This document shows, one piece after another, positions 27,598-43,503 of a DNA stretch of 64,000 nt (position 1 is the first letter of the stretch; every line of letters begins with the position of its first letter). The stretch comes from Bacteroidales bacterium (GTDB lineage: Bacteria; Bacteroidota; Bacteroidia; Bacteroidales; UBA12077), in the NCBI GenBank assembly GCA_963665525.1, contig OY762280.1, forward strand, positions 3,597,410 through 3,661,409. Reading direction: 5' to 3'. The notes beneath the pieces are model-generated. The model searched no databases. It was given only the letters and a program-made list of their open reading frames with translations, and had not been told where the DNA came from. A program made the position numbers and the translations under genes.

Positions 27598-28575
27598 TTA
27601 TTGACACTTAACAACATGTTCCATTTGATATTTTGCAGCTTCGGTATAATCACCTTTGTTTGCTTTTCCGTAAGCTTCACAAGCAGCAGCGTTATCTCCT
27701 TTTCCATAGTATGAATTACCCATTTCGAAATGAACTTTAGCATCTTTTGTATCCGTTTCACCAATGATTTCAAGAGCTTTGTTTCCTGCTTCGATTGCAG
27801 CATCCCATTTTGATTGCTTATTATAAATAACTGCTAATTGATAATAAATATCTTCGTCAGCATCTTTATAGTTCATTAAAGTATTGAAATATTTTTCAGC
27901 ATCAGTCCAGTTTTCACCTTTTACTGCATCAGCTCCAGCTACTAAATAAAAATTGCCAGCCAATTGTTTTGCAGTACCTTCCGATTTAGTATCATTCTTT
28001 GCAGCAGCAGCACTAAGGGCTCCATCGATAGCTTCTTTAAAGTTAGCTTCATCATTTTGATCTTTGTATACCTGTGCTTTTCTTACATATGACATAGGAT
28101 ATTTTGGATCCATTTCGATAGATTTATTTAATGCAACGATAGCATTATCATAATCTTTTGCACTGTATAAAGAAGCTCCTTTTGCATAATATAATCTTGG
28201 AATTGTTCTTTCTGCTTTGCTTTTCATTTTAGCATCATTATACGTTTCTGAATATTCAGCTAAAGTTCCAAAAGCAGCAATACACTCATCGTATTTCTTC
28301 TCTTTATAAAGACCCATAGCATATTTATATTGCATATTTGGAATTTGCGATACAGCTGTAGCTCTGTTTTCATTTTCAGTCTCTCCTAATTCATCATAAA
28401 TGCTAATACACTGTTTAAATGATTCTATAGCACCTAAATAATCTTTTGCTTGTGACTTAGCCACACCATCTTTTAATGCATCCACTGCTTCTGATGCCGT
28501 TTGTGCATTTACATTAACTGCAAAACCCAGTAATAATATCATTGCAGCTACTCTACTCATAATTTTGAATTTCAT
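27598..28575 (-). CDS. Secreted tetratricopeptide (TPR) repeat protein
   Basis: Signal peptide MKFKIMSRVAAMILLLGFAVNVNAQ (start moved to the ATG at 28575). Repeated 34-aa TPR-like units (YDNAIVALNKSIEMDPKY, WDAAIEAGNKALEI and others). Confidence 0.75.
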   Translation of the reverse strand: MKFKIMSRVAAMILLLGFAVNVNAQTASEAVDALKDGVAKSQAKDYLGAIESFKQCISIYDELGETENENRATAVSQIPNMQYKYAMGLYKEKKYDECIAAFGTLAEYSETYNDAKMKSKAERTIPRLYYAKGASLYSAKDYDNAIVALNKSIEMDPKYPMSYVRKAQVYKDQNDEANFKEAIDGALSAAAAKNDTKSEGTAKQLAGNFYLVAGADAVKGENWTDAEKYFNTLMNYKDADEDIYYQLAVIYNKQSKWDAAIEAGNKALEIIGETDTKDAKVHFEMGNSYYGKGDNAAACEAYGKANKGDYTEAAKYQMEHVVKCQ

Positions 28576-28729
28576 GGTAATAATTTTTTTAGTTATAGGA
28601 TTATGTTTCATTCTTTTCGGCTCTAAAAATATAAAAACGCTCTTAATAATAAAATTATTTTAAAATTAATTTGTTACATATATCAATTAATAACAATATG
28701 TTACATCGTTTTTAGGTATAGAAAATGAT

Positions 28730-29368
28730 CTAGTGCTCATTTACCAAGGAGTAAGCTATCTGATTATCAGTAAAATCAATTTTCACTAAGCCCAATACAA
28801 TCATGTTTATCAATACCTTTTCTGTTTTATATTTATTTAAGTTAGCTATATTTTTAAATTTTGAAAAAGTAATACTATTGTTATCCTGTAAATAATTTAA
28901 AAGTATTTTCTCTGGTTCATCATACCTGATTAGTATTCCTTTTCCAAACTTTTTCTTATTCCATGCTTTTAAATATATATTATTTACGATGATATTCTCA
29001 TCGTTTACCCTAATATAAACTTTTTGTTTTCCATTCTTATCAGGCGCTGTAATCAACTTTTCAGTATTCATTTTATCGATTGAAATCTCTAAAACCGTTT
29101 TTCCTCCAATATTCCATGCTTTTGTTTCAAAATAAACAGTTGGTTTACAATAAAGATCAGAAGCTGCTTGAACCATATAAAATTCCTCATCGCCTTGCAC
29201 TCCAGCAATAGATCCATTATCTCTAACTCCAATAAGAAGTTTGCCACCATCTGTATTTGCAAATGCTGCTAACGAGCGTGCAATCTTTTTTGAATCAGTA
29301 ATCGAATGCTTAAAATCTAACTGCTGATGCTCTCCCTGCTCAATTAAATCAAATATATACTTACTCAT
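28730..29368 (-). CDS. AlbA_2 (Schlafen-like) putative DNA-binding domain protein with a C-terminal wHTH-like region
   Basis: EGEHQQLDFKHSI...KKIARSLAAFANTDGGKLLIGVRDNGSIAGV is the characteristic AlbA_2 N-terminal block. Confidence 0.65.
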   Translation of the reverse strand: MSKYIFDLIEQGEHQQLDFKHSITDSKKIARSLAAFANTDGGKLLIGVRDNGSIAGVQGDEEFYMVQAASDLYCKPTVYFETKAWNIGGKTVLEISIDKMNTEKLITAPDKNGKQKVYIRVNDENIIVNNIYLKAWNKKKFGKGILIRYDEPEKILLNYLQDNNSITFSKFKNIANLNKYKTEKVLINMIVLGLVKIDFTDNQIAYSLVNEH

Positions 29369-29414: not shown

Positions 29415-29446
29415 AAACCTAACAGAATTTGAATTCTATTAGGTTT
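29415..29446 (-). terminator. Rho-independent terminator of the F-type atp operon
   Basis: 13-bp stem with one mismatch (aaacctaatagaat/attctgttaggttt on the minus strand), followed by TTGTTTT, downstream of the atpG stop. Confidence 0.65.
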
Positions 29447-29467: not shown

Positions 29468-30346
29468 TTACTTATTCAATGCCTCAGCACCACTAACAAT
29501 CTCTAAAATTTCATTGGTAATTGCAGCCTGGCGAGCTTTGTTATAGTTCAGTTGCAGCTCACGTATTAAATCGGCAGCGTTATCAGTTGCTTTATGCATA
29601 GCTGTCATACGAGCACCATGCTCAGCAGCTACAGACTCAAGAATAGCTTCATAAAATTGTATCTTTAGTGATCTTGGAATCAGTTCTTTTACAATGTATT
29701 CTTTCGTTGGTTCAAAGATAAAATCTGCATTTTCATTCATTTCAATATCATGAGGTAATTCAATAGGTAAATATTGTTCTGTCGATAAAATTTGAACAGC
29801 AGCATTTTTAAAACGATTATAGACTAAAACCACCTTATCATAATCTCCTACAATATAGCTCTCCATAATATCTTCAATCATAGGAGCAGCATTTGAAAAA
29901 CTCAGGTTCTCAAGAATCTCATTATTTACAAATAAATTTTTATAGCCTTTTGATTTATAAAATTCACTGCCTTTTTTCCCAATTGAAAATAAGGAAACAT
30001 TTCCTTCTTTATGTTCTCCGGCGTATTTCTCTTCAATTAAACTTATAACTTGCTTCGTAACATTGGCATTAAAAGCACCACAAAGACCTTTATTTGAAGT
30101 TATTGAAACAATCAGGATTTTTTCTGGAATCTCTTTTCGTGAATAGATATTTTCTTCTTCACCTTCGATACTTTTATTAATATTAAACAGAATTTGATGC
30201 AATTTCCCGGCATAAGGTCTAAGATTTATCACCGCATCCTGAGCTTTTTTTAGCTTCGCTGCAGAAACCATCTTCATTGCACTCGTAATCTGTTTTGTTG
30301 ATTTTACAGATGTTATTCGAGTACGTATTTCCTTTAAATTAGCCAT
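29468..30346 (-). CDS. atpG: F1 ATP synthase subunit gamma
   Basis: MANLKEIRTRITSVKSTKQITSAMKMVSAAKL ... ITNEILEIVSGAEAL are the canonical gamma termini. Confidence 0.95.
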   Translation of the reverse strand: MANLKEIRTRITSVKSTKQITSAMKMVSAAKLKKAQDAVINLRPYAGKLHQILFNINKSIEGEEENIYSRKEIPEKILIVSITSNKGLCGAFNANVTKQVISLIEEKYAGEHKEGNVSLFSIGKKGSEFYKSKGYKNLFVNNEILENLSFSNAAPMIEDIMESYIVGDYDKVVLVYNRFKNAAVQILSTEQYLPIELPHDIEMNENADFIFEPTKEYIVKELIPRSLKIQFYEAILESVAAEHGARMTAMHKATDNAADLIRELQLNYNKARQAAITNEILEIVSGAEALNK

Positions 30347-30349
30347 GTA

Positions 30350-31933
30350 TTACTCAGCTTTATATTTTAATGCTACCTCTTCGGCTACTTTTTTAATCGT
30401 TTTTTCAATATCCTCTGTAATCTTACCAGATTTTAAAATATCCATCGCATTTTTATGTTGCATTTCCATCATGTCTAAAAAGTCGCTCTCAAATTCTTTC
30501 ACCTTTTCAACCGGTATATCACTTAATAAACCATGTGTTCCACAATAAATAATTGCAATCTGTTTTTCTACAGCTACTGGTGAATATTGTCCTTGTTTTA
30601 GTATTTCTACATTCTTTGCTCCTTTATCAAGTACAGCTAAGGTAGCTGCATCCAGATCGGATCCAAATTTTGCGAAAGCCTCCAACTCACGATACTGTGC
30701 TTGATCTAATTTTAATGTACCAGCCACTTTTTTCATGGATTTTATTTGCGCATTACCACCAACCCTTGATACTGATATACCAACATTAATAGCAGGCTTA
30801 ACACCAGAATTAAATAAATCAGATTCTAAAAATATTTGTCCATCTGTTATAGAAATAACATTGGTTGGTATATAGGCAGAAACATCACCCGCCTGTGTTT
30901 CAATAATAGGAAGTGCTGTAAGCGAACCTCCTCCTTTAACTTTACCCTTTAAAGCTTCAGGAAGATCATTCATTTGTGCTGCAATCTCATCTGATTGAAT
31001 AATTTTAGCTGCTCGCTCTAAAAGTCTAGAGTGTAAATAAAATACATCTCCAGGATAAGCCTCACGTCCCGGTGGGCGACGTAATAATAAAGAAACCTCA
31101 CGATAAGCAACGGCTTGTTTCGAAAGATCATCGTAAATAATTAATGCTGCACGTCCAGTATCTCTAAAATACTCTCCAATACATGCACCTGCAAATGGTG
31201 CGAAAAACTGCAATGCAGCCGGATCAGAAGCTGTAGCACAAACAATAGTAGTATATTCCATTGCACCATGCTTTTCTAATGTGTCAGCAATATTAGCAAC
31301 TGTTGATCCCTTTTGACCAATTGCCACGTAGATGCAATATACTGGTTCACCTCTATCGTAAAATTCCCTTTGATTAATGATGGTATCAATTGCAATGGCT
31401 GTTTTTCCTGTTTGTCTGTCTCCAATAATTAATTCACGCTGACCTCTTCCTATAGGAATCATTGCATCAATTGGTTTAATCCCTGTTTGTATTGGTTCAT
31501 TTACTGGCTGACGATAAATTACACCCGGAGCCTTTCTTTCTATTGGCATCTCAATAAGCTCTCCACTTAATGGTCCTTTGCCATCAATTGGTTTACCAAT
31601 GGTATTGATAACCCTTCCTAAAACACCTTCACCAACATTGATTGAGGCAATCTTTTTTGTTCTTTTTACCTTATCTCCTTCTTTAATTTCTTCTGAGGAA
31701 CCTAGCAATACAGCTCCAACGTTATCCTCTTCCAGATTTAATACAATCCCTTTTTGACCATTTTCAAACTCAATCAACTCATTGGATTGTACATTGCTCA
31801 AACCATAGATTCTTGCAATTCCATCTCCAACTTGTAATACACTACCTACCTCTTCGAGTTCAGAATTTGTAGTAAAGCCTTCCAATTCCTTTTTTAATAT
31901 TTCAGAGACTTCTCCAGGTTTAATTCCAGCCAT
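30350..31933 (-). CDS. atpA: F1 ATP synthase subunit alpha
   Basis: Walker A GDRQTGKT. Alpha signatures [43 protein letters not shown]. Confidence 0.97.
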
Positions 31934-31951
31934 AGTATATAATTTAATGTT

Positions 31952-32515
31952 TTATTTTTTTCGTTTATTGTTAAAATCAATATTCATAAATTGATTTCTT
32001 AAATCTTGAATCTGACCTGCAACACTTAAATCTAATTGTTTATCATCCACTTGTATAATTACTCCTCCAATTACAGATTCATCAACTTTTGTTTTAAGTT
32101 CAACCGAAGCATTAAATGCATTCTCAATTGATTTCTGAATGTTTGTTTTATGAGTTCTTGTTAATTCAAATGCAGTTGTTAAAACAGCTGTTTTAATGCC
32201 TTTGCTTTTCTTATATAAATCGATGAAATTTTTACAAATGTTTTTAAGGTGATTTTCGCGCTTATTTTTAATGATCAATTTAATAAACGATAATGTGTGT
32301 TCATTTACTTTATCTCCTAATAATTCGCTTAAAACCTTGGTTTTTTTCGATTCTTTTACAACAGGATGTTCAAGCACAATATTAATTTCATCGTTCTCTT
32401 TAAGTAATTGAAGAACTAACTCAATATCTTTTCTTATATTATCAGTAATACCTTTCTCTTCGGCTAAAAGAAAAAGTGATTTTGCGTAACGGCTATTTAT
32501 CTGACTATGATACAT
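31952..32515 (-). CDS. atpH: F1 ATP synthase subunit delta (OSCP)
   Basis: Position between atpF and atpA. RYAKSLFLLAEEKG N-terminus and IGGVIIQVDDKQLDLSVAGQ C-terminal block. Confidence 0.85.
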   Translation of the reverse strand: MYHSQINSRYAKSLFLLAEEKGITDNIRKDIELVLQLLKENDEINIVLEHPVVKESKKTKVLSELLGDKVNEHTLSFIKLIIKNKRENHLKNICKNFIDLYKKSKGIKTAVLTTAFELTRTHKTNIQKSIENAFNASVELKTKVDESVIGGVIIQVDDKQLDLSVAGQIQDLRNQFMNIDFNNKRKK

Positions 32516-32527
32516 TAATTTTTCCCT

Positions 32528-33022
32528 TTAATTTAAATCAATGTCATTTACCAAATCGTCGATGAGTTTTTTCTGCTTACTCTCATCTCCAAGATTTTGC
32601 TTCATAATTTTTTCGGCAATATCGACCGATAATCCAGCAATTTGATTTTTAATTTCATTAATTACCTTATTTTTCTCATTTTCTACACTTTGCTTAGCCT
32701 CTTCGATGATCTTTTTGGCTTCTTGTTTAGCAGTTTGTCTGGCCTCTTCAATAATATTATTTTTTATTTCCTTAGCTTCTTTGAGCATACTCTCTCTTTC
32801 AATTTTGGCTAATTGTGTAATTTTTTCATTACCAAACTCAATTTTAGCCATTTCTTCCTTTGCTCTCTGAGCTGCTTCAAGGCTTTTACCGATTGATCTT
32901 TCACGCTGCTTTAAAGCTGCTAATATTGGTCTCCACGCAAACTTAGCAAGCACATAAAGTACAACACTAAAAGATAATAGCATCCAAATTAAAAGTCCCA
33001 GATCTGGTTTTATCAGTTCCAT
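32528..33022 (-). CDS. atpF: F0 ATP synthase subunit b
   Basis: Single N-terminal TM followed by a long charged helix. Position between atpE and atpH. Confidence 0.85.
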   Translation of the reverse strand: MELIKPDLGLLIWMLLSFSVVLYVLAKFAWRPILAALKQRERSIGKSLEAAQRAKEEMAKIEFGNEKITQLAKIERESMLKEAKEIKNNIIEEARQTAKQEAKKIIEEAKQSVENEKNKVINEIKNQIAGLSVDIAEKIMKQNLGDESKQKKLIDDLVNDIDLN

Positions 33023-33087
33023 AATTAGAATTTTTAAATTTAAAAAGCTTTACAGGCAGCCAACCGCTGCTCTGTAAAGCAAAATCC

Positions 33088-33345
33088 TTAAACAAATAAA
33101 ATAAGGAAACAAACAACAATAGCAAAGAATGCAACCCCTTCAATAAGTGCAGCAGCAACGATCATATTAGATCTAATATCTCCAGCTGCTTCAGGTTGAC
33201 GAGCGATAGACTCCATTGCACTACTACCGATTTTCCCAATACCTAATCCTGCAGCAATAGCAGCAATAGCAGCACCAAAACCAGCAGCAGCTTTAGCTAT
33301 AGCGGCTCCTTCAATTGCTAATAAAATTGTACCTAGTGTTAACAT
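33088..33345 (-). CDS. atpE: F0 ATP synthase subunit c
   Basis: 85-aa two-helix proteolipid with the loop ARQPE and the carboxylate in AAALIEGVAFFAIV. Confidence 0.9.
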   Translation of the reverse strand: MLTLGTILLAIEGAAIAKAAAGFGAAIAAIAAGLGIGKIGSSAMESIARQPEAAGDIRSNMIVAAALIEGVAFFAIVVCFLILFV

Positions 33346-33372
33346 AATGTAAACTTTTAAGTGAATAAAACA

Positions 33373-34485
33373 TTAATGTCCTTCATCAGAAGCCATTCCA
33401 AAATAAATGGCCGACAATATGGTAAATACATATGCCTGAATAAAAGCTACTAATAGCTCTAAAAATGACATAAAAATAGTAAACGCTATTGAAACTGGTG
33501 AAACTGCATATCCTAAGGCAGGTCCCATGTTTCCAAAAATAAAAATTAAACTAAAAAAGCCTAAAACAATAATATGACCAGCGGAAATATTTGCAAATAA
33601 TCGGATCATTAATACAAAAGGCTTAATAATAACACCTATTAATTCTATAAATGGAATTAATGGCAGTGGTAATTTCAACCACCAAGGTACTCCAGGTGGA
33701 TTAAAAATATGTTTCCAATAATTTTTATTCCCTGTTATTGTTGTTGTAATAAACGTAGAAAGTGCCAATGCCATTGTTACCGTAATGTTTCCAGTTACAT
33801 TAGCTCCTCCTGGAAAAATAGGAACCAGTCCTAATAAGTTATTTAATAAAATAAAGAAAAATATACTTAGTAAATAGGGTGTGTATTTTTCATATTTATG
33901 TTCACCAATGCTGTTCTTTGCAATATCATCTCTAACAAAAAGAATAAGAGGCTCAAGTAAAGACTGGATCCCTTTGGGTGGTAATCCTTCTCTTCTTGCA
34001 TAAGTTTTGGCAACAGAAATAAAAAGGAATATCATAAATACTCCGCTCAATAATATAGCAGCTACATTTTTGGTTACAGAAATATCTAATGGTCTTTCAA
34101 TAAATTCACCATGGTTATTTACTTCAATAACTTTACCTTCATAATCACCTTCATCAGCAATTTTAAAATTTCTATAAGTATGTCCATGTTCTAAGTTAAA
34201 CGACCAAAAAGAAACTAATCCCTGATTATTACTATATAAAATCACTGGAAGAGGAATAGATACATGATGTCCTTTATAAGAAAATATGTGCCAGTTATAA
34301 TTATCGCGGATATGTTCAAAAATAAATGTTCCCGGATTAAATTTTTTTTCTTCTGAATGACCATTATCATGCTCTTCTGTATGCTGCTGATTTTCTATTT
34401 CAATATTATCATTTGCAATAATTTGATTGCTATATCCCAAGCATAATAATAAAACGATTGAAATATTTAAAAAGAATTTGTGCAT
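33373..34485 (-). CDS. atpB: F0 ATP synthase subunit a (with a long N-terminal extension)
   Basis: C-terminal core RLFANISAGHI (essential Arg) and LELLVAFIQAYVFTILSAIY. The start is set at the ATG at 34485 (MHKFFLNISIVLLL) because a -7 box overlaps the track's start at 34509. Confidence 0.9.
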   Translation of the reverse strand: MHKFFLNISIVLLLCLGYSNQIIANDNIEIENQQHTEEHDNGHSEEKKFNPGTFIFEHIRDNYNWHIFSYKGHHVSIPLPVILYSNNQGLVSFWSFNLEHGHTYRNFKIADEGDYEGKVIEVNNHGEFIERPLDISVTKNVAAILLSGVFMIFLFISVAKTYARREGLPPKGIQSLLEPLILFVRDDIAKNSIGEHKYEKYTPYLLSIFFFILLNNLLGLVPIFPGGANVTGNITVTMALALSTFITTTITGNKNYWKHIFNPPGVPWWLKLPLPLIPFIELIGVIIKPFVLMIRLFANISAGHIIVLGFFSLIFIFGNMGPALGYAVSPVSIAFTIFMSFLELLVAFIQAYVFTILSAIYFGMASDEGH

Positions 34486-34506
34486 ACTAAAATCTTTGAA
34501 TACATA

Positions 34507-34514
34507 CAAATTTA
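34507..34514 (-). promoter_or_regulatory. Candidate -7 box for atpB (TAAATTTG on the minus strand)
   Basis: The plus strand reads CAAATTTA. The box is 22 nt upstream of the ATG at 34485 and just downstream of the V-type operon terminator. Confidence 0.4.
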
Positions 34515-34555
34515 ATGAATAATTGACAAAATTGCTTGTCTATTAAATAAAAAAA

Positions 34556-34581
34556 GACAGTGCAATCTGATTTGCACTGTC
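34556..34581 (-). terminator. Rho-independent terminator of the V-type ATPase operon
   Basis: Perfect 10-bp stem gacagtgcaa/ttgcactgtc with a 6-nt loop, followed on the minus strand by a 7-T run. It lies 35 nt after the subunit K stop. Confidence 0.8.
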
Positions 34582-34615
34582 CTTATTACGTAATATAAAT
34601 TTTATTGTTTCTTAA

Positions 34616-35092
<477 letters not shown>

Positions 35093-35115
35093 CTATTAAT
35101 TATTTTTATTCTTTT

Positions 35116-36891
35116 TTATTTTGAAAATGGTTTATATTTCTTACCGCCTCCAACGAAGCCGGCATTTTTATAAAATTCTACAAATGTTAAACGTAATGGA
35201 TGCACAAATGCACTTAAAACTGCTAAGAAGATATTTAATCCATGTCCTATCAGTAATACAATGATAAATGGAATATAGCTAACAAAACTATCTCCGATAA
35301 ACTGAGCTGCAATTTTATTAAATACCAAACCTAAAATAGCACTGGAAATACCAATTGCAAATAGTCTAATGTATGATAATAAATCGCCAAAAACTCCTGT
35401 TACCATGTTGTAAGCATCGTATAATCCCGATCCCATACTAGCAAATATATTGATGTCAGGATTACTAAATACTAATATTAATACTCCACTTAAGATCATT
35501 AAAATATTAATTACAATACCTGGTAGCGCTATATTCACCATTGGTAAAACAATAGCCAAAGCTCCACTTGTAATTAATAAAATCCATCCTATAGTGGATA
35601 ATCCATATTTTAATCCTCCTTGCCTGATTTGATTAGCAGCTTTAATAAACATACCGTAATAAATTTGTGCGCCACCAATACCTATCGATAACCAGAATAA
35701 TTTTAATGGATCAAGAATAATCTGTTTTAAAGGATAAGCTTCGATATTAATTAACTCTATTCCAAAGAAAGTTCCTGAGATCATTCCCATAATTACAGTA
35801 GCTATACCTAAAAATGAAGCTAAGCTTAGAATAGGTTTTAGTTTTTTATCTACTTTTCCTCTTAACAACAACGTTGCAATCAAAAGTAATAATCCATACC
35901 CTGAATCGCCCACACAAAAACCGAAAAATAACATGAAGAATGGAGCAAAGAATACAGTTAAATCTAATTCTTTATAATCAGGTAAATCATATAAATCACC
36001 TATTGGTTCAAACAATCTTGAGAATTTATTATTTTTTAGTTTAATTGGAACATTTTCCTGCGTATTTGGCTTTTCCGACAGATAATATACATTTTGTTCA
36101 TCAAGCATTTTTTTAAGATCTGTTTTCTTTTCTTCAGGAATCCATCCCTCTAAAAGCATAACCTTTTCCTCTGCTTGTTTTTCAGTGTGATTAATCGCTA
36201 AGTCGAAATCTGTTTTTTCTTGTAATTTTTGACGTGTTTCTTTAAGTACATCTTGATACTTAATAGCATATTCATCAAAAGCTTTTTCGATTTCTTCTAA
36301 ACGTTCTTTATTCTTCTGATCTTTTGCTAATAGCTCTGATAATCGATGTTCAGGTAATTTTATTTCCTCAGCATCAATATCTATAGGATTCGCACCGTGT
36401 TGAAGAGCCAAGATATATGAATATCCATCTATTGTGTTTATCACCTCAATAGGATATTTCTCTTTCCATTCCGGATTGAATTTTTTCTCGCTACAAACAA
36501 AATATCTTAAATAAATATGTTCTTTCGCAAATTTATCTTGCAACTCAAAATCGAAATCACCCCAAGGTTCAGCTTTTTGAATGTCTTTATTTAAAGAAAG
36601 CTGTTCCTGCTCAATAGAACTAATCTCCTCAGAAAGCATTTTGATTTGTTCAACCAATGCCAATCCATCCATTTCAGATTTTTCAGCAGCTTCTTCCTGA
36701 TTTCTTCTTTCTAAGAACTTTAAGGTTATATTTATTTCGCTGATTTGTTGCAACGACAATCTGATATGCTCATCTATTTCTTTCTTTTTCTGAATAATAT
36801 GAAGTACTCCCAATTCCTGAAGTTTCTCAAGAAAAGTGATATACTCCTTGTGATAGATTAAGAAAGAATATTTTATCATTGGAGTAATCAT
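35116..36891 (-). CDS. ntpI: V-type ATPase subunit I (a-subunit homologue)
   Basis: N-terminal cytoplasmic coiled-coil half and C-terminal polytopic half with SYIRLFAIGISSAILG (essential Arg). Operon position also fits. Confidence 0.88.
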   Translation of the reverse strand: MITPMIKYSFLIYHKEYITFLEKLQELGVLHIIQKKKEIDEHIRLSLQQISEINITLKFLERRNQEEAAEKSEMDGLALVEQIKMLSEEISSIEQEQLSLNKDIQKAEPWGDFDFELQDKFAKEHIYLRYFVCSEKKFNPEWKEKYPIEVINTIDGYSYILALQHGANPIDIDAEEIKLPEHRLSELLAKDQKNKERLEEIEKAFDEYAIKYQDVLKETRQKLQEKTDFDLAINHTEKQAEEKVMLLEGWIPEEKKTDLKKMLDEQNVYYLSEKPNTQENVPIKLKNNKFSRLFEPIGDLYDLPDYKELDLTVFFAPFFMLFFGFCVGDSGYGLLLLIATLLLRGKVDKKLKPILSLASFLGIATVIMGMISGTFFGIELINIEAYPLKQIILDPLKLFWLSIGIGGAQIYYGMFIKAANQIRQGGLKYGLSTIGWILLITSGALAIVLPMVNIALPGIVINILMILSGVLILVFSNPDINIFASMGSGLYDAYNMVTGVFGDLLSYIRLFAIGISSAILGLVFNKIAAQFIGDSFVSYIPFIIVLLIGHGLNIFLAVLSAFVHPLRLTFVEFYKNAGFVGGGKKYKPFSK

Positions 36892-37490
36892 TAGGCAGCC
36901 TCCTTATTTTCTTGACGTTTCTTAACGATCTTCTGTGATGATTTGGAAAGATTTTCCTCATCTTCAAGGAATCGTTTTACTTTAGAAATAGCTTCTTCGT
37001 AACCCGGAATTTGTACCTTTTCGTAAAGATTAACCTTTTGAGTAGTTTTCTTTCTTGCAAAATCTAAAAGTTCCATTTTACGTAAGAAAAACTCACTTTC
37101 AATAGATATTTTAACCAGCGACTCAACAATCTGAACACCACTTAAAAACCAACTTGGTTTATTGAAAAGGCTAAATTCCTTCATCTCAAAAATGACATCT
37201 TCTAAAATTGGGGTTTTTACACCAGCAATTTTCTTAACGATCATTTTCACATCTTTTACTGCAATCAGATCCTGATCAAACTCTCCCCAAAGTCGAACCA
37301 TCGCATCGTATTCTTTCATACGAGCATCCAACTTACGAAGCAATTCATCAGATTGATCTTTTGCACGCTTAACTTCCATGCGTAATGCGGCCTCCTTACT
37401 TTGCAGTGTTGGCAAAGCACGCAAGCGGACTTTAAGCTGCTTGTTTAATTGCTGTAATGATGTTTTATTATATTGAAATTTTATTGCCAT
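36891..37490 (-). CDS. ntpD: V-type ATPase subunit D
   Basis: 199-aa long-helix protein. NKTSLQQLNKQLKVRLRALPTLQSKEAALR is typical of the V/A-type D N-terminus. The start overlaps the end of subunit I by 1 nt. Confidence 0.85.
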   Translation of the reverse strand: MAIKFQYNKTSLQQLNKQLKVRLRALPTLQSKEAALRMEVKRAKDQSDELLRKLDARMKEYDAMVRLWGEFDQDLIAVKDVKMIVKKIAGVKTPILEDVIFEMKEFSLFNKPSWFLSGVQIVESLVKISIESEFFLRKMELLDFARKKTTQKVNLYEKVQIPGYEEAISKVKRFLEDEENLSKSSQKIVKKRQENKEAA

Positions 37491-37551
37491 AATTTTTTAG
37501 TTATTAGTTTTTAGTTCATAGTTAAACTATGGACTTAAAACTGTGGACTAA

Positions 37552-38877
37552 TTAATCTTCTTTTGGCCAATATTGATCAACAAATTCTTGTTTAATACCA
37601 ACTTCAGCAGGTTCAAAATGCTCGTTGAATAAATTCCAACTTGTTGAAAGCATTTGATCTACCTCGATATTAACATCAATAGCCAATAATTTATCTGAAT
37701 AATCTTTAGCAAATTTAAGAGTACGCTCATCATAATCTGTAAGGTCGAAACCATTTTCCTGTTTTGTTTTCGCGTTGGCAGCATCGGCATATAAACGAAT
37801 CGCTGCATTCATCACCTGTGGATGATCGGCCCGTGTTTTCTTACCAATTACTAACTGCTTCAGACGAGATAAACTACGGAATGGGTCAACAACCACCTTA
37901 CCAATATCAGTATCTTTACGTAAGAATAACTGACCTTCGGTAATATAACCAGTGTTATCAGGTATAGCGTGAGTAATATCACCACCCGATAATGTTGTTA
38001 CCGCAATAATTGTAATTGAACCACCATCTGGGAACTGTACCGCTTTCTCGTAAATCTTAGCTAAATCAGAATAAAGAGATCCCGGCATACTATCTTTCGA
38101 TGGAATTTGGTCCATACGGTTCGATACAATACTTAATGCATCGGCATAAAGTGTCATATCAGTTAAAAGAACCAATACTTTTTGATGTTTATCTACTGCA
38201 AAATACTCAGCGGCAGTTAATGCCATATCTGGTACAAGAATACGTTCTACAGGTGGGTTTTCAGTTGTATTCACAAAACTGATAATACGATCTAATGCAC
38301 CTGCATTATCGAATACATTCTTATAATATAAATAATCGTCGTTTGTTAATCCCATACCTCCAAGGATAATTTTATCGGCATCAGCACGAAGTGCTACGTT
38401 TGCCATTACCTGGTTAAAAGGCTGGTCAGGATCGGCAAAGAAAGGAATCTTCTGTCCTGTTACCAAGGCATTGTTTAAGTCAATACCAGCAATACCTGTT
38501 GGAATAAACTCTGATGGTTGTTTTCTACGAACAGGGTTCACAGAAGGACCACCAATCTGACGTTCTTCTCCTTCAATTGCAGGTCCACCATCAATAGGAT
38601 CTCCGTAAGCATTAAAGAAACGTCCTGATAATTCGTCACCAACTTTTAATACTGGTGGACGTCCTAAGAAAACAACTTCAGCATTTGTTGGGATACCTTC
38701 TGTACCTGAGAAAATCTGAAGTGTAACCTCATCGCCCATGATTTTTACAACCTGAGCTAATCGCCCGTGTACAATTGCCATTTCTTCATAGCCAATTCCT
38801 GTAGCTTTTAACGAACAAGTAGCTTTTGTAATCTGAGTGATCTTCGTATAGATTTTTTGAAATGCTTTTGTTTCCAT
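37552..38877 (-). CDS. ntpB: V-type ATPase subunit B
   Basis: Non-catalytic B-type nucleotide-binding fold: GQKIPFFA, LTDMTLYADALS, PGSLYSDLAKIYE, ITEGQLFL. Confidence 0.93.
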   Translation of the reverse strand: METKAFQKIYTKITQITKATCSLKATGIGYEEMAIVHGRLAQVVKIMGDEVTLQIFSGTEGIPTNAEVVFLGRPPVLKVGDELSGRFFNAYGDPIDGGPAIEGEERQIGGPSVNPVRRKQPSEFIPTGIAGIDLNNALVTGQKIPFFADPDQPFNQVMANVALRADADKIILGGMGLTNDDYLYYKNVFDNAGALDRIISFVNTTENPPVERILVPDMALTAAEYFAVDKHQKVLVLLTDMTLYADALSIVSNRMDQIPSKDSMPGSLYSDLAKIYEKAVQFPDGGSITIIAVTTLSGGDITHAIPDNTGYITEGQLFLRKDTDIGKVVVDPFRSLSRLKQLVIGKKTRADHPQVMNAAIRLYADAANAKTKQENGFDLTDYDERTLKFAKDYSDKLLAIDVNIEVDQMLSTSWNLFNEHFEPAEVGIKQEFVDQYWPKED

Positions 38878-40649
38878 TATGCAGTTCTCCTTTCTTCGAT
38901 TATCGAGTTAAGTTCATTCTCATTTTGCTTGAATTTATCCGAATTCCATTCAGAATAATTCATTTGTTTCATCTGGTTGATCATTTTCTTGAAATAAGAA
39001 CCTACATCTTCAAATGATTCGTATGAGAAATCAGTATGATAAATATCTAATACTTTATTCAACATATATTTTTGACGTTCAAGAGATGTTGAAGCATCAA
39101 TTTTATCAAATGCATCTTGTTGTAAAATTACGAAATCAACTACTTCGCCTTTCCAGAAACGATCATGATACTCGATAGGTACACCATCGTCACCTAAGAT
39201 ATTAATCTGTTCAGCTACTTCTCTACTTCTAATTAAAATATCTCTTGCTAATTGTATTTTCTCCGGCCATTCAGGATCGATATTTTCTCTGAAATATTCT
39301 TCTAATTCAGGATATTCAGCATATTTCGAATACGAATCCAATGGGTCAATAGCAGGATAACGCTTACTATCGGCACGATCCTGGGAAAGTGCATAGAAAC
39401 AGCGTGCTGCTTTCTTCGTTGATTCAGTTACCGGTTCTTTTAAGTTACCACCGGCTGGTGATACTGTTCCAATAAAGGTAATTGAACCTGTTTTATCGTT
39501 ATTCAAATATGTAAATCCTGCACGAGAATAGAAGTTAGAAATAATAGCAGGTAAGTCCATTGGGAATGCATCCTGACCTGGTAATTCTTCCATTCTGTTC
39601 GACATCTCACGAAGAGCTTGTGCCCAACGAGAAGTTGAATCGGCAAGTAATAATACTTTTAATCCCATTGCACGATAATATTCTCCTAAAGTCATTGCAG
39701 TATAAACTGATGCTTCACGAGCTGCAACCGGCATATTCGAAGTATTCGCGATAATCGTAGTACGTTCCATTAATTTACGTCCAGTACGTGGATCATCTAA
39801 TTCAGGGAATTCAGTAAAGATTTCCACAACCTCGTTTGCACGTTCACCACAAGCAGCAACAATAATCATATCAGCTTCGGCTTGTTTTGAGAGAGCATGC
39901 TGTAATACGGTTTTACCTGTACCAAAAGGCCCTGGAATGAATCCTGTTCCACCTTCTGCAATTGGATTTAATGTGTCGATTACGCGAACTCCTGTTTCCA
40001 ATAACTTAAATGGACGTGGCTTTTCTTTATATGCTTTAATAGCCAATTTAACAGGCCATTTTTGAGTCATTGTTAAATCAATGTCTTTACCATTTTCATC
40101 GGTAACAACAGCAATGATATCTTTAATGGTATATTCTCCCGCTTCAGCTACACTCTTAACAGTGTATTTACCTTCGAATTTAAAAGGAACCATAATTTTG
40201 TGAGGCATCCAGTTTTCTTTCACCTCACCTAACCAACCTCCTGCTTCCAGAACATCTCCCGGTTTAGCCATTGGTTTAAATTCCCATTTTTTATCGTCTT
40301 CTAATGGATTAGTATGTTCTCCTCGTTTTAAAAAAACACCTTCCATTTTATCAAGGTCGTTTTGTAGACCATCGAAGTTTTTAGAAAGAATACCAGGACC
40401 AAGTGTTACTTCTAACATGTGTCCTGTAAACTCAACCGTGTGATTTACCTTCAACCCACGAGTACTTTCAAATACCTGAACATATGCCTGGGTACCCATT
40501 ACTTTAATAACCTCAGCCATCAATTTAGTTCCTTCTAAATCAATGTAGCATATTTCATTTTGCAGAACAGGCCCATCAACCTCAACAAATACAAGGTTCG
40601 CGATAATACCTGCGACTTTTCCTTTTGTCATTTTATTTATTTTTTCCAT
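38877..40649 (-). CDS. ntpA: V-type ATPase catalytic subunit A
   Basis: Walker A GPFGTGKTV. LLADSTSRWAQALREMS and the non-homologous insert typical of A subunits. An alternative start is the ATG at 40631 (MTKGKVAGI). Confidence 0.95.
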   Translation of the reverse strand: MEKINKMTKGKVAGIIANLVFVEVDGPVLQNEICYIDLEGTKLMAEVIKVMGTQAYVQVFESTRGLKVNHTVEFTGHMLEVTLGPGILSKNFDGLQNDLDKMEGVFLKRGEHTNPLEDDKKWEFKPMAKPGDVLEAGGWLGEVKENWMPHKIMVPFKFEGKYTVKSVAEAGEYTIKDIIAVVTDENGKDIDLTMTQKWPVKLAIKAYKEKPRPFKLLETGVRVIDTLNPIAEGGTGFIPGPFGTGKTVLQHALSKQAEADMIIVAACGERANEVVEIFTEFPELDDPRTGRKLMERTTIIANTSNMPVAAREASVYTAMTLGEYYRAMGLKVLLLADSTSRWAQALREMSNRMEELPGQDAFPMDLPAIISNFYSRAGFTYLNNDKTGSITFIGTVSPAGGNLKEPVTESTKKAARCFYALSQDRADSKRYPAIDPLDSYSKYAEYPELEEYFRENIDPEWPEKIQLARDILIRSREVAEQINILGDDGVPIEYHDRFWKGEVVDFVILQQDAFDKIDASTSLERQKYMLNKVLDIYHTDFSYESFEDVGSYFKKMINQMKQMNYSEWNSDKFKQNENELNSIIEERRTA

Positions 40650-41484
40650 TTATTGCGAATTCTTTAGAAAACTCAAAACCCGATTTCAGATCATTGATAA
40701 TGTCTGAGAACATTTGTCGACCTGTTTCTTCGTCGAGTTCTAGCCATCTATAAGCTATGTCGAGTTTTATTGTATAAGCTAATATTACTTCAATCGTAAA
40801 ATAATCGAAAAGAGTAATTTCCTCTACCTTATCCCATTTAAGTTGATCTAAACCTTTTTCACGAGCCATAATATTTTCATTGTCGGCAAGTGTAATAATA
40901 TCAGAAACATATTCAAGGTCTACCTCTAAACCAAAATCTTTTGCATTACTGTTTAATATTGACTTTGTAACAAAATTATCGCCTATAAGCTGATGTTCTG
41001 CTTCAAGGTTGTATGTACGACAATTATGTCCAATAAGAATATTATTAAGATTTTGATTAAACTCAAACCACTGTTTTAAAAACTTATTTTTTGTTTTTAA
41101 AACATATTCATAATACATTTCTGTTAAAAGGTTTTCCCAACTTTTTGTAACGTTCTTCGATAACTCTTCATCATTATAAATCTCAACAAACTCGTACATG
41201 TACGAAGGAAGAATTCCTTGTTTGTCGTCAGAAAATTCTGTTTCAAAATCCTGAACAGAATACATGCCTAATTTATTTTGATTTTCATAATCTTCATCTA
41301 AGAATCGAAGAAGACGTTCATTGTCGTAAGGTAAAAATAGCAACTCAACCAGTTTATAATCTTCTGCTGAAAGGTGTTCTTTTAGCTCATTTTTAAAATC
41401 GAGCATTTGAAACTGAACCTCAGTATCATCGATAAAGATATCTGGTAAACCTGCTATAAAATAATGATAATAATTACGAAACAT
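40633..41484 (-). CDS. DUF2764 protein (Bacteroidota V-type ATPase accessory subunit, C-like position)
   Basis: MFRNYYHYFIAGLPDI N-terminus and its position between the E and A subunits, as in Bacteroidota V-type operons (recalled from memory). Confidence 0.7.
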   Translation of the reverse strand: MFRNYYHYFIAGLPDIFIDDTEVQFQMLDFKNELKEHLSAEDYKLVELLFLPYDNERLLRFLDEDYENQNKLGMYSVQDFETEFSDDKQGILPSYMYEFVEIYNDEELSKNVTKSWENLLTEMYYEYVLKTKNKFLKQWFEFNQNLNNILIGHNCRTYNLEAEHQLIGDNFVTKSILNSNAKDFGLEVDLEYVSDIITLADNENIMAREKGLDQLKWDKVEEITLFDYFTIEVILAYTIKLDIAYRWLELDEETGRQMFSDIINDLKSGFEFSKEFAINGKNK

Positions 41485-41486
41485 AA

Positions 41487-42104
41487 CTATTCTCCCGGAT
41501 ATAACATTTCAATGGTTTTTGGACGCAAGTATGATTTGAAGAAGTTTTCAAAATCTTCTTCACTAAAACTGATCTTGTATGATCCATCAGCCGGCCCAAC
41601 TTTAAATCCTCCTTTAATTGAATCGCTAAAACTTAATTCAAGATTCGCATTTAATTCTTTACCTGATTTTGCAGTAAAAAAGCTAGAAAATTCCTTTTCT
41701 AACTCAGCAGGCAATAATACAGATAAATCTATTGCTTCCCCTTTTTTCGAATCCCAGTTTTTTACAACAGTTTCAATAATTTCCTTAACGAATTTCACTT
41801 CGTCAAATGCTTTTTTAACAGGTTCGTCGATCACTTTGCTTACAATCATGTCTGTAATTTGCTGTTTTACAGCACGAATTGTTTGCTTAGTAGCAAGATT
41901 TAATTCGGCATCAACATTCTTTTTAATTTCTGCTGATTTTTGCTCAGCAGCAGCAATAATCTTTTCAGCTTCTTTTTCTGCATTTTGCTTTACTTTTTCA
42001 GCCTCAGATTTTGCTTCAGCAAGAATTTTTTCTGCCTCGGTATTTGCTTTTTCAACCCCCTCGTTATAAAGCTTCTGTGTTAATTCCTGAAGTTTGTTTT
42101 CCAT
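41487..42104 (-). CDS. ntpE: V-type ATPase subunit E
   Basis: N-terminal A/E/K-rich long helix (AEKILAEAKSEAEKVKQNAEKEAEKIIAAAEQKSAEI) plus a C-terminal globular domain. It is the first gene of the operon. Confidence 0.8.
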   Translation of the reverse strand: MENKLQELTQKLYNEGVEKANTEAEKILAEAKSEAEKVKQNAEKEAEKIIAAAEQKSAEIKKNVDAELNLATKQTIRAVKQQITDMIVSKVIDEPVKKAFDEVKFVKEIIETVVKNWDSKKGEAIDLSVLLPAELEKEFSSFFTAKSGKELNANLELSFSDSIKGGFKVGPADGSYKISFSEEDFENFFKSYLRPKTIEMLYPGE

Positions 42105-42146
42105 ATCTGTGAGATCTAATTGTTTTTACTTTAAAAAAATGAATTA

Positions 42147-42154
42147 CAAATCTA
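42147..42154 (-). promoter_or_regulatory. Candidate -7 box for the V-type operon (TAGATTTG on the minus strand)
   Basis: The plus strand reads CAAATCTA. It is an exact TAnnTTTG match 43 nt upstream of the ATG at 42104. Confidence 0.4.
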
Positions 42155-42206
42155 ATAACTTATATTTATTTATCAATAATTATTTACATTAATACGTTAT
42201 CAAATA

Positions 42207-42273
42207 AATAATTAGGTTTTGACCTAATTATTCATCAGCAAAACGAACAAAAAAATTGTTGAATTGTTCGTTT
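42207..42273 (-). terminator. Two tandem hairpins (probable terminators of the bactofilin-atpZ unit)
   Basis: Hairpin 42241-42273 has stem aaacgaacaa/ttgttcgttt. Hairpin 42207-42232 has stem aataattaggt/acctaattatt with loop tttg, followed by a T-rich tract on the minus strand. Confidence 0.55.
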
Positions 42274-42454
42274 CTAACAAATTTAATTCAGTTCAAAACA
42301 AACACCAAATTGATGGCATTAATTTTAATTATACAATCTGTTTAACAACACAATCTAGGCTAAATATATTAGCAATTGTAATTAATTACTAATCACTATT
42401 CTTAAAGTTAGTTTAGGTGGTAGGTCGGGCCAAAAATAAAAAAATATTTAAATG

Positions 42455-42850
42455 TCAAACATGATTTTTATCTTGTTTTCTTATATGCCTGACAATTAAA
42501 TATACTTCGAAGGCCGTATATAGTAAATATAAAGTAAAAAACGATATTAAAAACACTTTGGCTTTCTCTGTGAATAGAAATGCATATAAAGTAATTACTA
42601 TTAAATAAATCATCATTTTTATACCCGAAACCATCATAAAACGGGCAGCAAATTTTGATGCTCCTTTATCTTGCATTTGAATTATAGAAAAATGGAATAT
42701 AGCCGTAAGCACAGCAATTATTCCAAGTAATATCCAAAATACAGGTAAATAAAATGCTGCCAATACTGTTTTAAAAAGTATTAGTGCAACAGTTGCCACA
42801 AGGACTGTAAAAAACAGTTCTTGCAATAAAAATCGTTTGAAAATCTGCAT
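42455..42850 (-). CDS. Small 4-TM membrane protein in the position of atp-operon leader genes (DUF6168/AtpI-like)
   Basis: 131 aa with four hydrophobic helices. Its start overlaps the atpZ stop by 1 nt. Confidence 0.5.
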   Translation of the reverse strand: MQIFKRFLLQELFFTVLVATVALILFKTVLAAFYLPVFWILLGIIAVLTAIFHFSIIQMQDKGASKFAARFMMVSGIKMMIYLIVITLYAFLFTEKAKVFLISFFTLYLLYTAFEVYLIVRHIRKQDKNHV

Positions 42851-43095
42851 TACTTCTGAGGCTTTAAAAAATCTTTTATAGCATAATACGTTGCGAAAAT
42901 AACACTAGCCAAAGTAAGTACAACAGTAAATACCGGAAATTCTATCCCGGTTATCCATTGGTCAAGTTTTAATCCTCCAAGTACTCCAATAACCATAATT
43001 GCTATCATCTGAAAGCCTATAGCCGAGTACTTAGCAAAGTCGCTAGGCGCTTTTTTGTTCTTTGTTTCCGAATTTTGGTTCTTCTGATCTGACAT
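42850..43095 (-). CDS. atpZ: AtpZ/AtpI family protein (putative F0F1-ATPase-associated membrane protein)
   Basis: 81 aa. YSAIGFQMIAIMVIGVLGGLKLDQW followed by a second TM matches the AtpZ pattern. Confidence 0.7.
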   Translation of the reverse strand: MSDQKNQNSETKNKKAPSDFAKYSAIGFQMIAIMVIGVLGGLKLDQWITGIEFPVFTVVLTLASVIFATYYAIKDFLKPQK

Positions 43096-43453
43096 TTTTA
43101 TGTTGTTCTTCGCCCATATTACAGTTACCTGTAAATTTAGAGCCTGGTTCTATAGCTAATTTTTTAGTAACAATATCACCAAATATCTTAGCGGTCGCTT
43201 TAAGCGAAAGTAATTCACTAACCTTAATTTTTCCGTGAATTTCGCCTAATACTTCTGAGTTTTTGCAATCAATCTCACCATTTACACGACCAGTTTCACC
43301 AATAACAACTTTACCTGCAGTTTTCAAGTTTCCAGTTAGAACACCATCAATACGAATATCTCCATTTGAATTAACATCACCTGTTATTTCCGTTCCTGCT
43401 CCAATTAAGTTAATTGCAGCTGTAGTCTCTGTATCGTTGTTATACTTTGCCAT
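43043..43453 (-). CDS. Bactofilin (polymer-forming cytoskeletal protein)
   Basis: Repetitive beta-helical pattern: IGAGTEITGDVNSNGDIRIDGVLTGNLKTAGKVVIGETGRVNGEIDCKNSEVLGEIHGKI. Confidence 0.8.
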   Translation of the reverse strand: MAKYNNDTETTAAINLIGAGTEITGDVNSNGDIRIDGVLTGNLKTAGKVVIGETGRVNGEIDCKNSEVLGEIHGKIKVSELLSLKATAKIFGDIVTKKLAIEPGSKFTGNCNMGEEQHKNVRSEEPKFGNKEQKSA

Positions 43454-43495: not shown

Positions 43496-43503
43496 CAAAT
43501 ATA
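43496..43503 (-). promoter_or_regulatory. Candidate -7 box (TATATTTG on the minus strand) for the bactofilin-atpZ unit
   Basis: The plus strand reads CAAATATA, 43 nt upstream of the ATG at 43453. A second identical octamer lies at 43538-43545. Confidence 0.35.

Follow-up and report, generated by a model that had tools for sequence, protein, structure and literature searches.

In the genome of a Bacteroidales bacterium, a complete operon for a V-type ATPase lies inside the locus for the F-type ATP synthase, between the leader genes of that locus and atpB. We analyzed a stretch of 64,000 nucleotides of this genome (assembly GCA_963665525.1, contig OY762280.1, positions 3,597,410 to 3,661,409; here called the window), in which the locus consists of 16 consecutive genes on the minus strand: three leader genes, seven V-type genes, and six F-type genes. 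A preliminary description of the same DNA had listed these 16 contiguous genes and proposed that a self-contained V-type cassette had been inserted into the F-type locus. A listing of open reading frames (ORFs), combined with Pfam and NCBIfam scans, recovered each gene on the minus strand where it had been placed and allowed families to be assigned. We consider it highly probable that a native Bacteroidales V operon was relocated once into the F-type locus, that the locus now works as three tandem transcription units, and that the V enzyme is coupled to Na+ and the F enzyme to H+.

In the scenario we favor, the ancestor of a single Bacteroidales clade would have undergone one relocation of the V operon (E-DUF2764-A-B-D-I-K), which would have moved whole, taking along one or more promoters, the operator-like palindromes upstream, and the intrinsic terminator at its end. 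The operon would have landed in the short spacer just past the stop codon of the AtpI-like gene and upstream of the atpB promoter box, and V and F genes would have been inherited together from then on. The first transcription unit would comprise bactofilin, atpZ, and the atpI-like gene; the second would be the V operon, read from two putative promoters (P1 and P2) and closed by a conserved terminator; and the third would be atpBEFHAG, read from its own -7 box and closed by a terminator after atpG. Some read-through between these units is possible. The two enzymes would thus stand side by side, unfused.

The leader-atpB interval across Bacteroidales

We collected 80 atpB loci from species-representative Bacteroidales genomes, with 10 kb on each side (L001-L080), and mapped the proteins of the window onto them by tblastn. 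Further loci were reached from homologues of V subunit I, at identities down to 52% (L081-L085), and from homologues of V subunit B (L086-L089). Subunit B was used for reaching stand-alone V operons because it evolves more slowly than subunit I; the best 120 homologues of subunit I all lay within the clade described below. As L082 duplicates L081, the 11 loci besides the window that have a V operon within the F-type locus ("V-between-F" loci) represent 10 distinct sequences.

The preliminary description had stated that, in many Bacteroidota, bactofilin, AtpZ/AtpI, and a small membrane protein are encoded immediately upstream of atpB. Among the 80 loci, the leader was adjacent to atpB in 50, there was no leader in 19, 5 were too short, and 6 carried the V operon in between. 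The leader (bactofilin-AtpZ, usually with the small membrane protein) was found directly 5' of atpB in 50 of 69 informative loci, and the gap between the small membrane protein gene and atpB in these "empty" loci was mostly 15 to 86 nt. Because 50 loci show this adjacency and AtpZ-AtpI-atpB corresponds to the order proposed as ancestral for bacteria (I-sI-a-c-b-delta-alpha-gamma; PMC4154653), this premise was correct. In the window, the AtpI-like gene and atpB are 7.97 kb apart, with the V operon between them, and the atpZ/atpI-like leader does not adjoin atpB.

In the six V-between-F loci of the atpB sample (atpB 67-78% identical; L001-L003 and L005-L007), the seven V genes are placed as in the window, and L081/L082, L083, L084, and L085 show the identical 16-gene layout. 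Its presence in 11 other fetched loci (10 of them distinct) means that the layout is not an assembly artefact. Comparing the atpZ-atpB interval among relatives, as the preliminary description had suggested, showed that the leader normally adjoins atpB and that V operons occupy this interval in one clade only.

In a neighbor-joining (NJ) tree of F-type proteins (concatenated atpB, atpA, and atpG; 67 loci, 1138 columns, 100 bootstraps), the V-between-F loci formed a single group within the empty loci, recovered as monophyletic in all 100 bootstraps. The empty relatives around this nested clade include L079 and L080, the most distant sampled, and every member of the clade that was sampled has the V-between-F layout. 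Within the clade, trees of the concatenated V and F proteins were nearly congruent, and pairwise distances were correlated (r = 0.95). The parsimonious reading of these data would be a single insertion in the ancestor of the clade, followed by joint vertical inheritance of V and F genes. The insertion is old, is fixed in the whole clade, and is not particular to the window genome. The proposal that a V cassette was inserted into the F-type locus is supported by synteny and by the self-contained nature of the unit, with the qualification that the event is not recent, that it is clade-wide, and that the cassette is not demonstrably foreign.

Boundaries, signals, and composition of the V operon

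The V operon is also found on its own. Three homologues of subunit B at 87% identity sit in stand-alone V operons (L086/L087, L088, and L089), whose gene order, E-DUF2764-A-B-D-I-K, is identical to that of the inserted copies. These stand-alone operons have no F genes nearby, share a mutually conserved 3' neighborhood (DUF456, CAP, then OTCase and FtsK), and end in strong intrinsic terminators. Their neighbors (DUF456, CAP, OTCase, and others) were not found in the window, which covers 64 kb of 4.6 Mb.

Upstream of V operons, both inside the F-type locus and stand-alone, we found TGTTAT-N4-ATAACA, a palindrome of 16 bp that is often present as a tandem pair. Copies lie at L002:1898-1930, L003:1907-1939, L081:4612-4627, L083:4579-4611, L084:4600-4632, and L085:4593-4625 in the clade, and at L086:6666-6681 and L089:6675-6690 in stand-alone operons. 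A census of 1.55 Mb gave 63 matches with at most one mismatch, 16 of which fell within the 450 nt upstream of V-type E, a region that makes up 0.4% of the sequence. The distance from the palindrome to the start of E is 190 to 266 nt in the clade, where it lies upstream of P1, and about 55 nt in L086/L087 and L089. We regard this palindrome as a candidate operator, probably bound by a protein that regulates the V-ATPase of Bacteroidota. In both L002 and L003, the palindrome starts 17 to 20 nt past the stop codon of the AtpI-like (tm4) gene, which places the left junction at this point. As stand-alone operons have the same palindrome and a terminator of their own, the moved segment would span the operator-like palindrome through the terminator.

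At the 3' end of the V operon, the preliminary description had noted a perfect 10-bp hairpin followed by seven T residues. This core (GACAGTGCAA/TTGCACTGTC, then T7) is present and extends to a stem of 13 pairs (34553..34584, minus strand, as are all features below), with a minimum free energy (MFE) of -18.7 kcal/mol and z = -7.0 against shuffled sequences. The hairpin after subunit K is kept in the window, L001-L003, L005-L007, and L081; its sequence varies and its pairing is held, with compensatory double changes at 6 of 12 pairs. L083 and L084 have a hairpin and T-run of their own after K. The element has the structure of a Rho-independent terminator and is predicted to act as one.

The -7 consensus of the Bacteroidetes primary sigma factor is TAnnTTTG (PMC7366714). 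An estimate from base composition puts the chance frequency of such matches in this AT-rich sequence at about one per 1.4 kb of each strand, and the boxes are given weight here only because their positions are conserved among relatives. Two such boxes, before atpB and before V-type E, had been reported previously, and both are present and conserved in position. The box before atpB, P3 (TAAATTTG; 34507..34514), lies 29 nt before the start codon. In the window and in L001, L002, L005, and L006, TA(A/C)ATTTG is positioned 29 to 32 nt upstream of the atpB start; the box is also found in L003 (by alignment), L083, and L084, and is absent in L007. In empty loci, the gap between leader and atpB often holds a TAnnTTTG-like box. 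The box before V-type E, P2 (TAGATTTG; 42147..42154), lies about 43 nt before the start codon, and a spacer alignment of six clade loci shows the sequence TTATTAG(A/C)TTTGT without variation. Conservation of the K terminator with compensatory changes, together with the TAnnTTTG box before atpB, argues for separate transcription units.

The spacer alignment also revealed a promoter-like pair that the preliminary description had not recorded. This element, P1 (42278..42309), combines TTTG (42309-42306) with a second copy of TAAATTTG (42285-42278). It follows the pattern TTTGG, about 20 nt, and TA(A/C)ATTTG; the TTTGG and TAnATTTG columns are invariant in all six aligned clade spacers, and P1 is also found in L083-L085 at -145 to -152. 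A candidate -7 box read from the sequence 43 nt upstream of the bactofilin start (TATATTTG; 43496..43503) is a possible promoter of the leader genes. A sigma-70 promoter scan gave 60 matches against 68 expected; the consensus it uses differs from that of Bacteroidota.

P1 lies upstream of two tandem hairpins, which occupy the interval between P1 and P2 (42207..42273; MFE -25.6 kcal/mol, z = -5.0). The preliminary description had these hairpins right in that they are present and fold well, but they are not conserved: the equivalent stretches in L001, L002, L005, and L006 fold no better than shuffled sequences (z between -0.6 and +1.1), and the structure is particular to the window. The hairpins may serve either as a weak terminator for the leader genes or as a 5' leader structure of P1 transcripts. 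They are not a known riboswitch or leader, as an Rfam scan found no family anywhere in the whole 64-kb window. At the other end of the locus, a hairpin scan identified a terminator-like hairpin of 14 pairs after atpG (29415..29446).

The preliminary description had suggested comparing third-position GC content (GC3) and codon usage of the V segment with its flanks. GC3 matched, at 0.245 for the V genes, 0.210 for the F genes, and 0.237 for a background of 31 other ORFs in the window, and the fit in relative synonymous codon usage (RSCU) was lower for the V genes. The codons behind this deviation are CGT, GGT, TTC, and CAC, the usual high-expression set. We attribute the deviation to expression-linked bias; an old foreign origin could leave a similar trace. 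V and F genes also differ from each other (Arg CGT, 0.59 versus 0.28; Phe TTC, 0.36 versus 0.11; His CAC, 0.38 versus 0.17), and the stronger bias of the V genes hints that the V-ATPase is more highly expressed than the F-type machine in this organism.

The ORF listing and Pfam revealed no integrase, transposase, or other mobile-element gene in 29468-43453. The junction spacers contained no repeat or target-site duplication, only short matches at chance level and an 11-mer, ATTAAATTTGT, common to P1 and P3. V operons of the DUF2764 type are typical of Bacteroidetes (PMC10197588). The close homologues that carry a name all come from Bacteroidales or Bacteroidota, save for a few metagenome-assembled genomes (MAGs) that are probably misbinned. 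With no GC3 discontinuity, mobile-element gene, or junction repeat, and on comparison with the fetched loci, the insertion would most likely represent an intragenomic relocation of a native operon rather than a transfer within the order. A mobile element or genomic island as carrier of the V operon was considered and rejected on similar grounds (no integrase or transposase, no flanking repeats, GC3 equal to that of the flanks) and because its distribution is not patchy.

Genes of the locus and their ion-binding residues

The leader begins with a bactofilin gene (43043..43453; Pfam PF04519, 1.7e-29), followed by atpZ (42850..43095; Pfam PF09527, ATPase_gene1, 3.3e-12), which encodes the "I" type of ATP synthase protein I, and by a gene for a 131-aa protein with four transmembrane segments (4-TM), recognized by eye as four hydrophobic segments, in the position of AtpI, or "sI" (42455..42850; the I and sI naming is that of PMC4154653). 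The 131-aa protein of the window has no Pfam or NCBIfam match itself. The top family among 23 positional homologues was PF03899 (ATP-synt_I), matched by 2 of the 23 with a best E value of 1.3e-3, and the 4-TM gene lies directly 5' of atpB in empty loci; the assignment as AtpI-like is weakly supported. Bactofilin is the conserved first gene of the F-type leader in many Bacteroidales lineages (e.g., L008:9014- and L026:8999-), where atpZ often overlaps it. No functional connection of a cytoskeletal polymer with ATP synthase is known to us.

The V operon is complete for the Bacteroidota DUF2764 type. It comprises genes for subunit E (41487..42104; NCBIfam NF002424, 2e-31, below the equivalog cutoff, with Pfam vATP-synt_E on orthologues), DUF2764 (40633..41484; Pfam PF10962, 1.1e-64), catalytic subunit A (38877..40649; Pfam ATP-synt_ab, ATP-synt_ab_Xtn, and ATP-synt_ab_N), subunit B (37552..38877; Pfam ATP-synt_ab and ATP-synt_VA_C; homologues 86-96% identical), subunit D (36891..37490; Pfam PF01813, 6e-34), subunit I, the stator a-subunit (35116..36891; Pfam PF01496; NCBIfam V-type I, 2.8e-86), and subunit K, a duplicated c subunit (34616..35080; two Pfam ATP-synt_C matches). 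The NCBIfam scan returned nothing for the DUF2764, bactofilin, and AtpZ proteins of the window. DUF2764 orthologues in L081, L083, L084, and L085 have precomputed Pfam matches to vATP-synt_AC39, the V-type subunit d/C family (weak in L081/L082, unmarked in L083-L085), and DUF2764 may therefore be a divergent central-stalk socket subunit of this reduced V-ATPase.

The F-type part consists of atpB (F0 subunit a, 33373..34485; Pfam PF00119, 3e-59; TIGR01131 above its cutoff), atpE (F0 subunit c, 33088..33345; Pfam PF00137), atpF (F0 subunit b, 32528..33022; Pfam PF00430), atpH (delta/OSCP, 31952..32515; Pfam PF00213, 3.5e-48), atpA (F1 alpha, 30350..31933; Pfam ATP-synt_ab, ATP-synt_ab_C, and ATP-synt_ab_N), and atpG (F1 gamma, 29468..30346; Pfam PF00231, 1.2e-94). 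No genes for F-type beta or epsilon were found at the locus or elsewhere in the 64-kb window, which holds no further gene of the alpha/beta family. The Bacteroidetes atp locus is split, with beta and epsilon encoded elsewhere (PMC4154653).

We compared the rotor subunits with those of known structure. In an alignment of subunit K to Enterococcus hirae NtpK (2BL2), L61, T64, Q65, Q110, and E139, the Na+ ligands listed for NtpK (PMC2359735), are all conserved. When the atpE c subunit was aligned to that of I. tartaricus (1YCE), Glu65 was kept and four other residues were replaced (Q32 by I, S66 by G, T67 by V, and Y70 by F). From these residues, we infer a Na+-type V rotor and a H+-type F rotor. 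The same pairing of a Na+-type V-ATPase, whose rotor is likewise of the Na+ type, with a H+-type F-ATP synthase has been described in Bacteroides fragilis, where the V and F operons are at separate loci (PMC10197588). An N-ATPase (the alternate F1Fo enzyme encoded by atpDCQRBEFAG, with AtpQ and AtpR and without delta) was excluded because delta/OSCP is present and TIGR03306 (altF1_A) scores 65 bits against a cutoff of 302; the c subunit also lacks Na+ ligands.

Further variation was seen in V genes of other genomes. A gene for a 117-aa 23S_rRNA_IVP (four-helix-bundle) protein lies between subunits B and D in L088 (11375-11728), indicating that the V operon tolerates small insertions. Subunit I has 661 aa in one subclade (L002:7396-9400 and L003:7399-9400; proteins P0071 and P0073), against about 591 usually; its tblastn match to the window protein is broken into two parts, indicating that about 70 residues have been inserted internally. 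Two subunit B homologues, P0137 (642 aa) and P0138 (635 aa), exceed the normal length by about 200 aa and outscore the self-match, one of them with PF20133; they may be B fusions or gene-calling run-ons.

The locus is flanked by conserved neighbors on both sides. Right after atpG lie a gene with a Schlafen/AlbA_2 domain (SLFN_AlbA_2) and a TPR gene, both in the window (27598-29368) and in most V-between-F loci; the loci concerned are L001, L004, L006, L081, and L083-L085. In L002 and L003, a Schlafen match lies about 6 kb further downstream, with no TPR match. Neither gene was detected beside atpG in empty loci, and on this distribution the pair can be taken as a second synteny marker of the clade. 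Just 5' of bactofilin, a 969-aa protein (43606-46515) has no Pfam match and a faint NCBIfam match to a TolB beta-propeller (E value of 7.7e-4). Its gene is kept upstream of the leader in the core clade; Rikenellaceae-like loci have it on the opposite strand, about 9 kb 3' of atpB.

Alternative explanations and known systems

Several points weigh against a single relocation into three separate units. The trees are NJ trees built on tblastn-derived segments, not maximum-likelihood trees. The palindrome is degenerate in the window itself, where alignment places a remnant of the pair at 42317..42350 with at least three mismatches. The RSCU of the V genes correlates with the window background at r = 0.876, against 0.965 +/- 0.011 for random subsets of the background. 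P3 lacks a well-spaced -33 TTTG, and the promoters and the efficiency of the terminator are deduced entirely from motifs and their conservation. The codon deviation, together with a cassette that brings its own palindrome and terminator, would also fit horizontal acquisition, in which the V cassette came from another organism (at the closest, another Bacteroidales lineage) and any V operon already present was lost. A donor from the same order is conceivable, given that stand-alone operons are at distances of 0.49-0.51 from the window and the deepest clade members at 0.39-0.41. Such an acquisition nonetheless appears distinctly improbable: GC3 is the same as in the flanks, the deviating codons are those of high expression, the operon and its named close homologues are of Bacteroidota type apart from the few doubtful MAGs, and no integrase, transposase, or junction repeat was found. 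As the event predates the divergence of the clade, any compositional signal would have faded in any case. The opposite polarity, with V-between-F ancestral in Bacteroidales and the V operon excised to a new site in other lineages, is consistent with a layout that is widespread in a deep clade and shows no compositional discontinuity. It would, however, require many independent precise excisions, since the V-between-F loci make up a single clade, nested in a background of 50 leader-adjacent loci from many lineages, L079 and L080 among them. The adjacency of I, sI, and atpB is moreover the general bacterial state (PMC4154653), and stand-alone V operons have one common conserved neighborhood. We regard this polarity as extremely unlikely.

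A separate question is whether the 16 genes act as one. They could form a functional super-operon, largely co-transcribed, in which read-through couples both ATPases and the AtpZ and AtpI-like proteins serve both. The genes share one strand and are separated by short spacers, the layout has been kept through deep divergence (down to 52% identity in V subunit I), no clade member has lost the leader genes although they lie about 8 kb from atpB, and L005 and L006 have no hairpin between leader and V operon. Against this stand the strong K terminator, conserved with compensatory changes, the -7 boxes conserved before both V-type E and atpB, and stand-alone V operons that manage without leader genes; V and F genes also differ in codon bias (in CGT and TTC, for instance), which suggests different expression levels. 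On balance, we think such co-transcription unlikely. A more elaborate form would make the juxtaposition itself selected: both machines would be targets of the leader proteins, which might for instance help to assemble or place the Na+ K-ring and the H+ c-ring, and regulated read-through, from P1 and the hairpin leader into the V genes and through a leaky K terminator into atpB, would balance both in one bioenergetic supra-operon. This version is very doubtful. Taken together, these considerations favor relocation of a native V operon, followed by joint inheritance of three tandem units.

If so, the locus is an unusually clean case of a whole operon that entered the spacer of another operon, bringing its regulatory region and terminator, and became fixed there. 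The "before" states (a leader adjoining atpB and a stand-alone V operon) can be seen in many genomes, as can the "after" state. The layout provides a synteny marker for an uncultured Bacteroidales clade and a test bed for the insulation of neighboring operons by terminators and promoters in Bacteroidota, and TGTTAT-N4-ATAACA is a candidate operator for V-ATPase regulation in Bacteroidota. For B. fragilis exposed to bile stress, the V-ATPase contributes strongly to fitness (PMC10197588).

A literature search of open-access papers found no description of a V operon inside an F locus, and the closest known systems are its separate parts. The seven-gene V operon of Bacteroidota (B. fragilis PTOS_002482-88 and the V-ATPase operon of Porphyromonas gingivalis) has the same genes in the same order and, like that of the window, a duplicated K with all Na+ ligands and a terminal intrinsic terminator, with the upstream palindrome in relatives. 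It differs in that the operons of B. fragilis and L086-L089 stand alone, away from F genes, while the window copy lies inside the F locus, with a degenerate palindrome and two hairpins between P1 and P2. The F locus of Bacteroidota (atpZ-atpI-atpBEFHAG, with atpDC elsewhere) shares with the window its genes, their order, a H+-type c subunit, and bactofilin 5' of atpZ; the window departs from it by the 7.97-kb separation that the V operon introduces and by an atpB with its own conserved -7 box after a terminator. In the Bacillus-type atp leader (atpZ-atpI-atpB and onward), as in the window, a PF09527 protein and then a small 4-TM protein are encoded upstream of atpB. AtpI is a c-ring assembly factor; the window differs from the Bacillus type by the added bactofilin and by the weak assignment of its AtpI (1.3e-3, 2 of 23 homologues). 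No new type of machine or new mechanism is demonstrated here, and current understanding is not challenged. All components are known; the novelty is in their arrangement, with an entire V operon placed within the F locus and fixed in a clade of Bacteroidales that is represented mainly by MAGs.

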